Shown piece by piece: positions 1,374 to 56,781 of a stretch of 64,000 bases of DNA (its first letter is position 1; every line of letters starts with the position of its first letter). The stretch covers positions 1-64,000 of the IMG/VR virus record IMGVR_UViG_3300027747_004524. One strand, 5' to 3'. The DNA comes from a virus. Both the position numbers and the translations under genes were made by a program. The notes under the pieces were generated by a model. The model saw only the letters and a list, made by a program, of their open reading frames with translations, made no database searches and was not told the DNA's origin.

Positions 1374-2021
1374 TTAAAGTTTAATACCTTTTTTCAATTT
1401 CTGTAGACCCACCTCTGTTAATACCATGAATTGATATCCTCTGGATTCACAAAAGTATTGGCAAGACGCCCATTTGGCATTGTTTTTAGGTAGCGTAGTT
1501 TGGTTCGATGGCTTAATTTCCCATATCTCTACCCTACCGTCGCTAAAAAACACTTGTAGATCTGGGTTGTATTCATGTACGTTTCCATTGAAAGAATAGT
1601 TCAGCTTAAACGGTTCTACTTCGTAGCTTATAACTTCCTGCATTGCCTCTAAGCATTCATATACTTCACATTCCATCCCTGACCTGTAATGTACTTCTTT
1701 GCCGTTCTTCGCAGAGTACATATAACCTTCTCTGAACTTGGTTTTCTTCTGTGATACTTGTCCTGTTTTTTTATCTTGATCTTTCCATATTGTTGCTCTC
1801 ATTTGGCCTTGTTTTGGTACTTGTTCTGTTCTGTGCTTACTCTTAAAGTGTTGACGCAGGTCTCTAACACAAGCACCGCACCGTTGCAATGGGCATTTTA
1901 CGTATTCTCTTCCTTCGTCATGGCTTTCAACAATATGATTGTTAAAGGTGCCAAAATCTTCAAAAGCAACTCCACATACAAAGCAAGTAAATTGTCTTTT
2001 GTCGTTCTTAGGAAAGAACAT
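1374..2021 (-). CDS. tandem C2H2 zinc fingers fused to TnsA-like/gp4-like PD-(D/E)xK endonuclease
   Basis: CFVC..HIVESH and CPLQRC..HFKSKH; then YRSGME...YEVEP...YNPDL...WEIKP. Confidence 0.75.
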   Translation of the reverse strand: MFFPKNDKRQFTCFVCGVAFEDFGTFNNHIVESHDEGREYVKCPLQRCGACVRDLRQHFKSKHRTEQVPKQGQMRATIWKDQDKKTGQVSQKKTKFREGYMYSAKNGKEVHYRSGMECEVYECLEAMQEVISYEVEPFKLNYSFNGNVHEYNPDLQVFFSDGRVEIWEIKPSNQTTLPKNNAKWASCQYFCESRGYQFMVLTEVGLQKLKKGIKL

Positions 2022-2298
2022 TGTCTATTTCCTCTTTTTCACAGACGTGAATATCCTTTATATCTTTTGCCGTAAATGTTTCATCCCCACCAGTTTTTAT
2101 ATTACGGCCTAGAAACTGTATGTTTTCTTTATCTGTGTTTATGTCTTTTATATCTTTTGTCTTTATTTTTGCGAACATTATTCGATCTTTTTCTTTTACA
2201 GCATAGTATTGGCCTTCTTTTTTGAAAAACATTGTAAAGCCCTCTTGTTCAAGGTCTTTTGATAACTGTTCTTTTAAGAAGTCATTCCACTTTTTCAT
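2008..2298 (-). CDS. hypothetical protein with CTS-like N-terminus (MKKWNDFLKE)
   Basis: ORF track 2008..2310; ATG 2298 gives the CTS-like start; TATAAATA on - strand at 2323-2330. Confidence 0.65.
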   Translation of the reverse strand: MKKWNDFLKEQLSKDLEQEGFTMFFKKEGQYYAVKEKDRIMFAKIKTKDIKDINTDKENIQFLGRNIKTGGDETFTAKDIKDIHVCEKEEIDNVLS

Positions 2299-2339
2299 TT
2301 TAGCTCGCATTTTTATGTGTTTTATTTATATATAGTATT

Positions 2340-2765
2340 ATGTTCAAGTTATGTAGTTTTAGAGCTTTTTTAGAAGAAGAGCAACCCGAGCCAAAGACTC
2401 CTAGTAGCAAGCAAGACTATTTTGCTGCTTTAGGCGATGAGGAGGGCATAGAGTGGAGCGATCTTGTAAAAACTATGGAAGGTGAGCCATGGATTTCTTC
2501 CCACTTTAGTTTGGGGGCCCCAGACAAAGAAATTATGTATAAATTGTCACCTTGGGAGATTGTCAAGGGTTCTTTAACTCCCAATGGAGCAGATATCAGG
2601 CTAAAGCAGCAAAGAGGTTCTAGAAGCTATCTTCAAAACAATAGACTTAATAAATCGTCTTATGAAGATAAAAAAAGGTATCATTTAAATAGAGAAGAAT
2701 TAACTAAGTTTTTAACCACAGGTTGGTCTCCAGCTGTTCAGGCTGCAAGTGGTCCACCTGCTTGA
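2340..2765 (+). CDS. hypothetical protein with CTS-like N-terminus (MFKLCSFRAFLEE)
   Basis: 141-aa ORF; TATATA 5 nt before ATG. Confidence 0.7.
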   Translation: MFKLCSFRAFLEEEQPEPKTPSSKQDYFAALGDEEGIEWSDLVKTMEGEPWISSHFSLGAPDKEIMYKLSPWEIVKGSLTPNGADIRLKQQRGSRSYLQNNRLNKSSYEDKKRYHLNREELTKFLTTGWSPAVQAASGPPA

Positions 2766-2815
2766 ACAAGTATTCATTTTACGTTATATTGGATTTCCCC
2801 GTCACGAGGTGAAGT

Positions 2816-3703
2816 ATGCCATATGATGTAATGAACAATTTAAGTCAAAGAACGATTAATTGTTTGGATCATGGTCACGTCACGCTTGTTGACGTTATGC
2901 CTCGTTTAGTTCCTGACGACCAAAAGACAGCCGACTATTGCATAGTTCAGTCGGCACGAGTCTCCTATGGCGATGGTACTAAGACCCTAAATGAAGATAG
3001 AGGGTTAATTAGGTACTTAATGCGTCATTTGCACACAACTCCATTTGAGATGTGCGAGTTCAAGTTTCATTGCAAGATGCCGATATTTATAGCTCGTCAA
3101 TGGATTAGACATCGAACAGCCAACGTTAACGAGTACAGCGGCAGGTATTCTATTTTAAAGGATGAATTCTTTATACCAGACACTGCTCGCCAACAGTCCT
3201 CTGTTAACAAACAAGGAGGAGATGCTAAGCTTGACAATACAACAAGCCAGCAGTTCTCTGATTATTTGTCTTCCGCTTGTGACTCTGCTTACTCTAAATA
3301 TGAAGAATTCTTAGAGAAGGGAGTTAGTCGAGAGCTTGCTAGAATATCCTTGCCTATCAACCTTTATACCGAATGGTATTGGAAGATTGACTTGCATAAC
3401 TTGTTTCATTTTTTGGCGTTGCGTTGCGACTCACATGCTCAATATGAAATAAGAGTATTTGCGGACGCTATGCTGGATTTGATTAGACCTATTGTGCCTT
3501 TATCTGTTGAGGCGTGGGAAGACTATCACCCCAATAGAGGAGGTGTAAAATTAACTAAGCTAGAGGTAGAAGCTATCAGAAAGACTCTATCCGATATTAA
3601 GGGACTAGACCTAGCACAGATTAATAGTGAAAATAAAAGAGAACAACAAGAATGGCTTACAAAAGCATCTAAGTTGGGTTTATACGAAAAGCTAGAAGTT
3701 TAA
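2816..3703 (+). CDS. thyX: FAD-dependent thymidylate synthase
   Basis: signature RHRTANVNEYSGRY; HTTPFE; SRELARISLP; HAQYEIR. Confidence 0.97.
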   Translation: MPYDVMNNLSQRTINCLDHGHVTLVDVMPRLVPDDQKTADYCIVQSARVSYGDGTKTLNEDRGLIRYLMRHLHTTPFEMCEFKFHCKMPIFIARQWIRHRTANVNEYSGRYSILKDEFFIPDTARQQSSVNKQGGDAKLDNTTSQQFSDYLSSACDSAYSKYEEFLEKGVSRELARISLPINLYTEWYWKIDLHNLFHFLALRCDSHAQYEIRVFADAMLDLIRPIVPLSVEAWEDYHPNRGGVKLTKLEVEAIRKTLSDIKGLDLAQINSENKREQQEWLTKASKLGLYEKLEV

Positions 3704-55106: not shown

Positions 55107-55107
55107 T

Positions 55108-55455
55108 ATGCCCTACATTGAAAACAGCTTCAGAAAAAGACTTGATATACACATAGAGAAACTAGTGGACTCTTTGTTCAATGCTGTTTCGGAAAAGGAC
55201 ATATCAGAATTTGATGCAAATGATTTACTGAACTGTTCTGGTAATTTAAATTACGTCATGACCAGAATTTGTTCTTCTTTGCTCGTAAACAAACCAACGT
55301 ATGCTAAGGTAGCCATTATTACAGGCGTTCTTGAGAACGTTAAGCAAGAGTTTTACCGTAGAGTCGCTTCACCATATGAAGACAAAAAGATAGAGCAAAA
55401 TGGTGATGTAAAGGGTTATTTAAGCGAAGAGACGAATTTGTTCCATTCTTCGTGA
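55108..55455 (+). CDS. conserved-type phage protein (MPYI...PYEDxKIxxNGDV)
   Basis: LNY..TR..GVLENVKQEFYRRVASPYEDKKIEQNGDV pattern recurrent in phages. Confidence 0.7.
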   Translation: MPYIENSFRKRLDIHIEKLVDSLFNAVSEKDISEFDANDLLNCSGNLNYVMTRICSSLLVNKPTYAKVAIITGVLENVKQEFYRRVASPYEDKKIEQNGDVKGYLSEETNLFHSS

Positions 55456-55847
55456 TCGTGGATCCTAGGGCAATGATCCCCAGAATAGAAGCAAGCATAG
55501 GCCATACAAAATAGCTCTTCGTCATTTTGTTTTTGCCTATTTTTTGTTCCCTTAACTATCTTTGACCATTCTTTTTTCTTGCTTTTGTCTATTAGGTGTT
55601 CCCATACCATGTGTGCTATTTCGTGTAGCGTTGTGAACTTTCTTGAATAATTCCACGGTGCTGCTACCACTATTTTCTTCTTGTGCACATAGCCAATATG
55701 ATCCTCGTCCCCTTTTAGAGTGTTTTTAGGGGTATAGGTAAACTTAAACTTGTTGAGTATTTCTTGATGCTTCTTGGGAAGTGCAGAAATAAGCTGGTCT
55801 ACGTTTTCTTTTTCTTCTGCCTCTATAAAAAGCTTAAAATTCATCAT
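55416..55847 (-). CDS. zincin-like metallopeptidase with CTS-like N-terminus (MMNFKLFIEAEE)
   Basis: TTLHEIAHMVW..EELFC; TAAATA 4 nt before ATG. Confidence 0.7.
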   Translation of the reverse strand: MMNFKLFIEAEEKENVDQLISALPKKHQEILNKFKFTYTPKNTLKGDEDHIGYVHKKKIVVAAPWNYSRKFTTLHEIAHMVWEHLIDKSKKKEWSKIVKGTKNRQKQNDEELFCMAYACFYSGDHCPRIHDHEEWNKFVSSLK

Positions 55848-55899
55848 ATGGTATTTATGCTCCTGCAATCTTTTTACGCCTACATGGGTAAATACATAT

Positions 55900-56781
55900 A
55901 TGTCAAAGCTCTCTTTTAAATTCTGGCTTTTGGATGAAGACTCAAGAAGTTTAGCAAAAGTTTATGCTGGTCTTCTCAAGAACGTCCCCCAAGACAAGGA
56001 ACATCATCCTGAAGGTGATGTTCTTACCCATGTTAAGCTTGTTAGAAAAGCCATCCCAGGTGCTATACGTAGATTAAATGTTCTAAAGAACACACCACCG
56101 TTTTCTAACATTCTTGAAGATATGGACTTTAGTTTAACACCAAAAGAGCTACAGATACTTTACATAAGTGCTTGGCTGCACGATGTAGGCAAGGCGACCG
56201 CAACAACAATAGGTGGGGTAAATTATGAGTTCTTGAGGCAGATGGACATTCAATATCAAAATGATGCCTCTAAGATAAAGTCTGTTGGACACGATCTTCC
56301 GGCACACTACTCCCCTTTAATTAACAGGCTTGGAGGTTTCGCTCCACCTGAGACAAAAGCTCTTTACGAAGAAAACAAGGACGTCATAGATTTTATAATT
56401 GACCATCACATGCAATTAGGTCAATTTCCAAAATCTTTTATAAGAGAGCATTTTAATAATGGAAAGGCCATAAACACTCAAAAGCTTAAACTTCTGCTTG
56501 TTTTGATGTGGGCAGACAAAATGGGCAGAACACCAGAATCTGTTAATAAGGCAATGAGCGAAAACGAACGTAAGCTTCTTGACTGCTCTAATGAATCCAT
56601 TAAACAAAAGCAAAATCAAGAAAAGACAGCTAGTAGACAAAAGTCCTTTAATGATCCTGTTGCTATGGCTAGAGGATTGTTACAAAAAGGTCTCTCTAAA
56701 GAATCTGTACTAAAGTCAATAAAGGGAAAGTTTCCCAATATTACAGACGAAGAACTATCATCCATTTTAAGGAGCACATGA
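55900..56781 (+). CDS. HD-domain protein with CTS-like N-terminus (MSKLSFKFWLLDE)
   Basis: HHPEGDVLTH, WLHDVGKA, GH, DHHM, WAD; TAAATA 5 nt before ATG. Confidence 0.8.
   Translation: MSKLSFKFWLLDEDSRSLAKVYAGLLKNVPQDKEHHPEGDVLTHVKLVRKAIPGAIRRLNVLKNTPPFSNILEDMDFSLTPKELQILYISAWLHDVGKATATTIGGVNYEFLRQMDIQYQNDASKIKSVGHDLPAHYSPLINRLGGFAPPETKALYEENKDVIDFIIDHHMQLGQFPKSFIREHFNNGKAINTQKLKLLLVLMWADKMGRTPESVNKAMSENERKLLDCSNESIKQKQNQEKTASRQKSFNDPVAMARGLLQKGLSKESVLKSIKGKFPNITDEELSSILRST

Follow-up and report, generated by a model that had tools for sequence, protein, structure and literature searches.

A short N-terminal tag on unrelated proteins of an uncultured huge phage is probably a T4-type capsid targeting sequence

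The window analysed here is the first 64 kb (64,000 nucleotides) of the 122,854-bp IMG/VR virus contig IMGVR_UViG_3300027747_004524, which is about 25% complete according to CheckV and so comes from a phage whose genome measures roughly half a megabase. The contig encodes a DnaE-type polymerase, tRNAs, a transfer-messenger RNA (tmRNA), ClpX, a CCA-adding enzyme and a tail fibre. Scattered over the window are genes whose products open with the same short peptide pattern, which we call the tag (table 1). A first-pass annotation had quoted 11 such N-termini and read them as T4-like capsid-targeting leaders on otherwise unrelated proteins; all 11 proved to be correctly placed, in position and in strand. 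Two starts are ambiguous, as the gene starting at 55847 has an adjacent ATG at 55844 and the gene starting at 2298 has an alternative upstream ATG at 2310. For all counts on the contig we used our own crude call of 172 genes over its whole length. In the window this call comprises 10 tagged and 80 untagged genes, the tagged open reading frame (ORF) of 42 amino acids (aa) lying outside the called set. Five further tagged genes of the same call lie on the contig beyond the window, and about one gene in eleven on the contig carries the tag.

The core of the tag, F-x-x-[WFY]-[LIMVFR] starting at residues 2-9, was present in 15 of the 172 genes, while 2.4 were expected from the internal rate in the same proteins (p = 3e-8). 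The enrichment also held against shuffled N-termini, the comparison on which the first-pass annotation had staked its motif: 2000 shuffles of residues 2-20 gave 3.2 +/- 1.7 genes, with a maximum of 11. The same core test on phiKZ, whose guanine-cytosine (GC) content of 36.8% is near that of the contig, returned 1 of 355 genes, with no enrichment and no profile match. The pattern is thus not general to the gene starts of A/T-rich phages. In all 11 window proteins the tag begins within seven residues of Met1, and among 61 tags taken from the contig and from LR756511.1, a 595-kb uncultured phage, the first aromatic residue stands at position 3-5 in 50, most often at position 4. When the first 20 residues were removed, the best pairwise BLASTP E-value between tagged proteins was 0.07. 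With no similarity between their bodies, the description of these proteins as unrelated holds. Their arrangement was also as first described. Seven of the 10 called tagged genes in the window lie on the minus strand, compared with 5 of the 80 untagged ones (p = 1e-5; 8 of 11 if the 42-aa ORF is counted), and three tagged pairs (2298/2340, 11608/11655 and 55847/55900) diverge from gaps of 41-52 bp. The tag is real and position-specific.

What follows the tag differs from gene to gene. The ArdC-like protein is built, in this order, of the tag, a spacer of about 140 residues, an ArdC N-terminal domain (single-stranded DNA-binding) and the HExxH domain. Its Pfam ArdcN match reached 23.9 bits against a cut-off of 22.6, PHROG gave a metallo-protease match, and its homologues carry PF08401 and PF06114, some of them being named ArdC. 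The 81-aa tagged gene lies directly downstream. For the putative 2H phosphoesterase the Pfam LigT match is weak (19.6 bits, under the cut-off of 23.3), while protein atlas clusters for tRNA_lig_CPD, 2H-SAK and Acb1 were hit at 0.92-0.93, with LigT also indicated; the structural matches start at about residues 8-26, past most of the tag. This protein resembles RNA-repair cyclic phosphodiesterases and, more distantly, Acb1. The HD phosphohydrolase hit atlas HD clusters at 0.92 and had structural matches to PolyA_pol+HD and AAA_33+HD proteins; HD domains of this kind occur as fusions with RNA-repair enzymes, both CCA-adding enzymes and polynucleotide kinases. In the PDB, neither the ArdC-like nor the HD protein had a sequence match. 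The weak Pfam matches of the metallopeptidase-like protein are to Peptidase_M78 and ATLF, both under cut-off. The 475-aa protein has the highest codon-usage score in the window and the second highest on the contig. Its tag is followed by a basic stretch, a long acidic stretch rich in Asp, Glu and His, and a C-terminal coiled-coil-like region, and it is a candidate for an abundant internal or core protein. Whether the 42-aa ORF is a gene is uncertain, given its very small size and its position directly against the tmRNA gene; it could encode a mini-protein or be a remnant.

Table 1. Positions of the tagged genes and of other features discussed in the text, on the contig whose first 64 kb form the window. 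G001 is the closest large relative.
Feature	Position	Strand	Description	Homologues in relatives
Untagged gene, 215 aa	1374-2021	-	N-terminal zinc-finger-like region; weak T4 gp4 similarity	
Tagged gene, 96 aa	2008-2298	-	Aromatics 4 and 7, Leu8, Glu10, the exact T4 spacing; no Pfam or PHROG match	G001 orthologue (69 bits), tagged
Divergent control region, 41 bp	2299-2339		Overlapping TATATA and TAAATA, -10-like	
Tagged gene, 141 aa	2340-2765	+	No known family	G001 orthologue (193 bits), tagged
Tagged gene, 81 aa	10008-10253	-	No Pfam or PHROG match	G001 orthologue, tagged
Tagged ArdC-like gene, 452 aa	10250-11608	-	Pfam ArdcN and HExxH metalloprotease domain	
Divergent control region, 46 bp	11609-11654		TATATA on each side	
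Tagged gene, 100 aa	11655-11957	+	Basic (pI 9.6); no known family	G001 orthologue, tagged
Tagged putative 2H phosphoesterase, 167 aa	28261-28764	-	Two H-x-T motifs	G001 orthologue (254 bits), tagged
Tagged gene, 475 aa	28757-30184	-	pI 4.8; no family match (Pfam, PHROG)	G001 (247 bits) and LR756511.1 (28 bits), tagged
tmRNA gene	30267-30618	+	Rfam RF00023, 131 bits, E = 7e-53	
Tagged ORF, 42 aa	30687-30815	-	Perfect tag: aromatics 4 and 7, Leu8, Glu10	
Tagged gene, 114 aa	52171-52515	-	No Pfam or PHROG match	G001 (138 bits) and LR756511.1
Tagged HExxH metallopeptidase-like gene, 142-143 aa	55416-55847	-	Weak Pfam matches	G001 (223 bits) and LR756511.1 (116 bits) orthologues, tagged
Divergent control region, 52 bp	55848-55899		TAAATA ending 5-7 nt before each ATG	
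Tagged HD phosphohydrolase, 293 aa	55900-56781	+		G001 orthologue (340 bits), tagged
Tagged gene beyond the window	74143-74502	-		
Gene for a 481-aa protein	81148-82593	+	No Pfam or PHROG match	G001 (510 aa); weaker in LR756511.1 (76 bits)
ClpX-like gene	88137-89408	+		
Tagged gene beyond the window	108539-109177	+	Twin-arginine-like signal and hydrophobic stretch after the tag	
Tagged gene beyond the window	109179 (start)	+		
Tagged CCA-adding enzyme gene beyond the window	112045-113304	+	Class II	
Tagged gene beyond the window	115461-115838	-		

Beyond the window, the tagged CCA-adding enzyme combines a PolyA_pol head, an RNA-binding domain and tRNA nucleotidyltransferase domain 2 (Pfam E-values 1e-22, 1e-13 and 1e-7, all above cut-offs), and a DUF5872-like protein is also among the cargo. 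Relatives add further tagged nucleotidyltransferases and a 'Swiss Army Knife' HAD RNA-repair domain. Judged from these domain assignments, an RNA end-repair toolkit (CCA-adding enzyme, HD protein and putative 2H phosphoesterase) is a recurrent cargo; that it counters host anticodon nucleases is speculation. The proposal that several tagged proteins carry domains suited to counter-defence was borne out by the ArdC-like protein, the putative 2H phosphoesterase, the HD protein and the CCA-adding enzyme, whose domains would fit either counter-defence or damage repair. In the protein encoded at 108539, trimming of the tag would leave the Tat-type signal near the new N-terminus, making re-export possible, and from its sequence this protein may even be re-exported to the periplasm.

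Three relatives of the contig are likewise rich in tags. G001 (381 kb, 79% complete, DnaE 78% identical to that of the contig, partly collinear with it) has 48 tags among 559 genes. In the more distant LR756511.1, whose DnaE is 45% identical, 53 of 1072 genes are tagged where shuffles give about 14, and 23 tags were found in G004, a complete genome of 533 kb. Twelve of the 15 tagged genes on the contig have a homologue in G001, and all 12 homologues are tagged there, with the exact residues differing; the other three have no homologue in G001 or LR756511.1. For the CCA-adding enzyme, the tag was present in 21/21 full-length orthologues at >=58% identity, two further matches being N-terminally truncated fragments, and absent from homologues at <=48% identity, which begin about ten residues later in the alignment. 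The ArdC-like protein behaved in the same way. A tag is present in each of its 19 nearest homologues (39-100% identity), of which two or three have starts called too far upstream, and absent from its distant homologues (250-790 aa, mostly ArdC-type proteins of 270-320 aa). F5, W8 and E13 of the tag are invariant in 16 ArdC-like orthologues, as are the HExxH histidines.

At the DNA level, an alignment of the tags on the codon of the first aromatic residue showed little information at third codon positions. Leu is encoded by all six of its codons, the codon of the aliphatic residue at position 8 keeps only its middle T, and the same peptide pattern is kept in a relative with 53% GC. Free third positions and varied codons indicate selection on the protein rather than on the DNA. 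A DNA-level repeat or a mobile promoter cassette was considered as the source of the shared N-terminus and rejected, since the codons differ synonymously. In 57 related head-module loci, scaffold and protease genes are conserved and the tagged neighbours vary. Internal-protein genes are variable among T-even phages (PMC9026906), and the variable tagged neighbours of the head module resemble them. The tag is a modular, lineage-specific add-on under purifying selection.

We compared the tag with the capsid targeting sequence (CTS) carried at the N-terminus by the T4 internal proteins IPI, IPII and IPIII (Mullaney and Black 1996; reviewed in PMC9026906 and PMC3012670). The T4 sequences quoted by the first-pass annotation agree with the T4 record, which gives MKTYQEFIAE for ipII and ipIII and MKTFKEF for ipI. 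The consensus of the 61 tags, M-[KL]-[TNS]-F-K-E-[WF]-[LIV]-E with more Glu after it, aligns with these N-termini without gaps, and the commonest spacing places the first aromatic at 4, the second at 7 and the aliphatic at 8. Amber-suppressor mutagenesis of T4 IPIII assigned targeting mainly to residues 4 and 7 (Tyr4 and Phe7) and processing to residues 8 and 10 (PMC9026906). The conserved residues of the tag thus coincide with the T4 targeting positions and in part with the processing positions; T4 ipI itself has Phe4 and Phe7. The first ten T4 residues are enough to bring foreign proteins into the head and then into the host (PMC9026906; PMC3012670; PMC5694885). A profile built only from LR756511.1 tags and run against 262 T4 N-termini ranked 61.1 first and ipI joint third, and 12 of the 13 best matches of this profile on the contig were tags. 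Of the proteins on the contig, 12 of 15 tagged and 42 of 157 untagged ones have the T4 site cut by the head protease gp21, [LIV]-x-E, among their first 24 residues (p = 7e-5). T4 gene 61.1 (NC_000866, 18966-19130, minus strand) encodes a 54-aa hypothetical protein that starts MKTFKEFIKE, a near-perfect CTS.

The T4 CTS and the tag are thus alike in sitting at the extreme N-terminus of otherwise unrelated proteins, in their length of about ten residues, in the order M-K-T-aromatic-x-E-aromatic-aliphatic and in a cargo that differs between relatives, and both are found in phages with a homologous portal, gp21-class protease and gp23 capsid protein. They differ in scale. T4 has three or four CTS genes, small and mostly basic, whereas the huge phages have 23-53 per genome or contig, amounting to 3-9% of genes and including enzymes of 290-1076 aa. 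The second aromatic of the huge-phage tag is usually Trp, but Phe in T4. The phages themselves (about 0.4-0.6 Mb) use a DnaE-type polymerase, and their likeness to T4 is confined to the virion module and a few genes (rIIA/B, replication, recombination).

T4-type head genes were found in the more distant relatives. In LR756511.1 the head module follows the T4 order, with a portal (Pfam Portal_T4, 249 bits), a 616-aa core-like protein, a Peptidase_S77 protease (96 bits) that keeps T4 gp21 residues 85, 140 and 165, a coiled-coil scaffold and a Gp23-family capsid protein (290 bits); two large tagged genes (486 and 1076 aa) lie just downstream. G004 encodes an S77 protease (99.6 bits) along with portal, scaffold and capsid genes of the T4 type, and G006, another IMG/VR contig, whose DnaE is 59% identical to that of the present one, has the whole head module. 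The gp21-like protease that the first-pass annotation had called for is therefore present, as Peptidase_S77, in the tag-bearing LR756511.1, G004 and G006, but none is encoded on the contig itself. Searches with T4 proteins (phmmer) found homologues of gp4, gp15, gp17 and gp25 across the huge-phage group, and a PHROG search added a baseplate wedge subunit. The tag co-occurs with T4-type head and protease genes in these relatives. The clade capsid protein was found in 388 IMG/VR contigs from many metagenomes and is 78-92% identical in the best 80 of the 388. G001 and LR756511.1 share the terminase (681 bits) and baseplate genes. As the contig and the recovered part of G001 lack head genes, the link to a T4-type head rests on the distant relatives and on the shared terminase and baseplate genes, and from these sequences we infer, on good grounds, such a head for the phage of the window.

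Two matches to head genes in G001 were rejected: a 39-bit capsid-protein match falls within a Pro/Thr-repeat protein outside any head module, and for a 17-bit 'protease' match the real counterpart of the gene in LR756511.1 is a different protein (261 bits).

Many tagged genes share an upstream element. TAAATA or TATATA occurs within 60 nt upstream of 11 of the 15 tagged genes and 17 of the 157 other genes on the contig (p = 3e-7), with no -35 box evident beside it. The 141-aa gene (2340-2765) lacks a Shine-Dalgarno sequence and has TATATA ending 5-7 nt from its ATG, which makes a leaderless mRNA probable; the position of TAAATA before the ATGs at 55847 and 55900 suggests that both of these mRNAs are leaderless as well. 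In LR756511.1 the hexamer ends 4-5 nt before the ATG, a sharp peak to which 21 tagged genes contribute, again implying leaderless mRNAs. At the same distance the element precedes untagged genes of LR756511.1 for a baseplate wedge protein, a sheath stabiliser, a tail lysin and a virion protein. About half of the leaderless-type genes are tagged and half untagged, and many tagged genes have ordinary Shine-Dalgarno leaders. The TAAATA-type element resembles the T4 late promoter TATAAATA; a phmmer search of three huge-phage gene sets with T4 proteins found no gp55-like late sigma factor. In either orientation, a tagged gene behaves like a small transcription unit that has been inserted on its own. 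The element also occurs as a TACATA variant and was seen genome-wide in LR756511.1 and G004, implying that a -10 element like that of T4 late genes drives a class of leaderless mRNAs.

By analogy with T4, the tag is probably a capsid targeting sequence of the T4 type. It would be a short amphipathic leader of about 10-15 residues, and its two aromatics (positions 4 and 7) would attach the freshly synthesised protein to the scaffolding core of the assembling prohead. The capsid shell would then close around the core, a gp21-class serine protease would remove the leader after a nearby Glu, and the mature protein would stay in the head among the DNA and enter the host with it. In the clade this tag is attached to dozens of unrelated genes per genome, each usually forming its own small, often leaderless, transcription unit behind TAAATA or TATATA. 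In this scheme we infer core binding, cleavage, virion residence, ejection and a role in counter-defence from the behaviour of the T4 proteins. Every part of the original interpretation that could be checked computationally held up, and the sequences support it to that extent. Aligned to the cleavage site of T4 gp23, the clade capsid protein offered two candidate sites, between which no choice could be made. When the scaffold and protease of G006 were folded together with the first 45 residues of the ArdC-like protein, the predicted complex scored 0.00, which is no answer and speaks neither for nor against binding.

Several observations weigh against this assignment. No head, scaffold or protease gene was found on the contig, which can be put down to its covering only about 25% of the genome, and the recovered part of G001 has no head module either when searched with Pfam S77 and Gp23 and with the LR756511.1 capsid and portal proteins. 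The cleavage signal is less clear in LR756511.1, where [LIV]-x-E is not enriched (25/63 tagged versus 335/1009 untagged proteins). Across the tags of the contig and LR756511.1 taken together, Glu mostly stands directly after the aliphatic residue, one position earlier than in T4, which indicates that the cleavage rule, if there is one, differs from that of T4. T4 61.1 is tagged yet annotated only as hypothetical, so the tag alone may not prove packaging. The upstream element also precedes a DnaB-like helicase gene and an SbcC-like gene and is therefore not a clean marker of late genes. Enzymes of the CCA-adding type would serve equally well if they were expressed early. Finally, relatives encode ClpX together with ClpP, and ClpX/ClpP recognise N-terminal signals.

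The last point bears on an alternative in which the tag is a signal for a phage AAA+ machine (ClpX). As an N-terminal degron it would limit the lifetime of these proteins; otherwise it would be a handle by which they are unfolded or translocated. ClpX reportedly reads N-terminal motifs (Flynn et al. 2003), and alongside the ClpX-like gene of the contig there are ClpP homologues in G001 (81 and 70 bits; 88767-89186 and 323600-324109) and LR756511.1 (77 bits; 584618-585130), which keeps this alternative alive at low probability. To our knowledge the tag is unlike the published classes of ClpX N-motif, and we know of no ClpXP in T4, where the same motif is a proven capsid address. Nor is there an obvious rationale for a degron common to RNA-repair, anti-restriction and structural-looking proteins, and we regard this use of the tag as quite unlikely. 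Jumbo-phage ClpX/ClpA may translocate proteins or help virion assembly (Iyer et al., PMC7824862). The tag could also direct proteins to a different phage-built structure, for example the tail, a site on the membrane, a compartment for replication or translation, or an assembly of RNA-repair enzymes, its likeness to T4 being convergence on a generic amphipathic helix. The motif is indeed short and of such a generic kind, several of the cargo enzymes act on RNA and could cooperate, and the 108539 protein has its twin-arginine-like signal after the tag. Yet many copies agree with T4 in Met1, Lys2 and Thr3, in Glu6, in both aromatics (positions 4 and 7) and in the aliphatic at 8, the phages concerned have head genes homologous to those of T4, and the cargo is much broader than RNA repair. 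A different address is thus unlikely.

A further reading places the conservation in the nucleic acid: leaderless transcripts close to their promoter would conserve, for instance, the initial transcribed sequence or a feature for loading ribosomes on a 5' AUG, and the peptide would be a by-product. The TAAATA-like hexamer at 4-5 nt from the ATG of the 21 tagged LR756511.1 genes fits such a feature, as does a slight lean of the tag codons to A/T. The nearly free third positions argue otherwise, position 8 keeping just the middle base that sets the amino-acid class, as do the Shine-Dalgarno leaders, the untagged half of the leaderless-type genes and the persistence of the peptide pattern at 53% GC; we judge a by-product very improbable. 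Chance or compositional bias of A/T-rich gene starts has in its favour that gene starts abound in the A/T-rich codons of Lys, Asn, Phe and Glu. It is refuted by the composition-preserving shuffles, whose maximum stayed below the 15 tags seen, and by the phiKZ control, and the retention of the tag across orthologues speaks against it too, which leaves chance hardly credible.

Comparable packaging is known from other phages. The phiKZ-like giants SPN3US and 201phi2-1 carry long N-terminal propeptides on ejection and inner-body proteins (PMC5694885). As proposed for the tag, many proteins are loaded in the head and trimmed by a gp21-related protease; unlike the tag, these propeptides are mostly 79-127 residues long and have no common short motif, and phiKZ shows no tag enrichment. 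In phage P1, an N-terminal signal sends DarB, an anti-restriction protein of the Dar system, into the capsid for delivery with the DNA (PMC9024508). This is conceptually like the tagged ArdC-like protein, but P1 has a single cargo, a 30-residue signal of unrelated sequence and no scaffold core. Plasmid ArdC is a single-stranded DNA-binding metalloprotease that is carried into the recipient during conjugation. It shares the ArdC N-terminal and HExxH domains with the phage protein, and both would enter a new cell with the incoming DNA; the phage version adds the tag and about 140 residues and would travel by capsid rather than by the conjugation channel. A full-text literature search and a comparative-genomics review of jumbo phages gave no description of such tags in huge phages. 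The mechanism, that of the T4 CTS, is known; what is notable here is the scale (3-9% of genes), the enzymatic cargo and the occurrence in a very common clade of uncultured huge phages.

Should the tag function as it does in T4, the injected arsenal of these globally common phages could be predicted from sequence by one simple rule. It would yield a candidate list of counter-defence and host-takeover proteins, most of them without a known family, CCA-adding and RNA end-healing enzymes would be deliverable as protein, and the T4 capsid-targeting mechanism would reach well beyond the T-even phages. Phage-based protein delivery could also draw on the tags as a natural library of packaging leaders. 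Extending the T4-type capsid-targeting interpretation, we tentatively suggest, without holding it to be probable, that the clade uses the tag as a general shipping label. About 50 proteins per virion, among them a complete tRNA/RNA end-repair kit, the ArdC-like anti-restriction protease and other enzymes, would then form a ready-made counter-defence proteome with no wait for gene expression.

Some neighbouring genes and features of the relatives were recorded in passing. The untagged 215-aa gene lies directly downstream of the 96-aa tagged gene and overlaps its end, and the two are probably co-transcribed; its similarity to T4 gp4 (head completion; frame 76885-77337) is weak (30.5 bits, phmmer). 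Between the 475-aa tagged gene and the 42-aa tagged ORF, the tmRNA gene fills what looked like a stretch without genes; an ARAGORN scan of the whole window did not report a tmRNA at its position. In contrast to the capsid protein, DnaE is only 45-78% identical among the relatives and was not detected in the nearly complete genomes G004 and G005; it appears that the conserved virion module is combined with various replication modules. T4 rIIA (144 bits, 134729-136864) and rIIB (137 bits, 137210-138118) have clear homologues in LR756511.1. On the contig, the 481-aa protein has a very high codon-usage score and is kept in both G001 and LR756511.1; it is probably an abundant protein.

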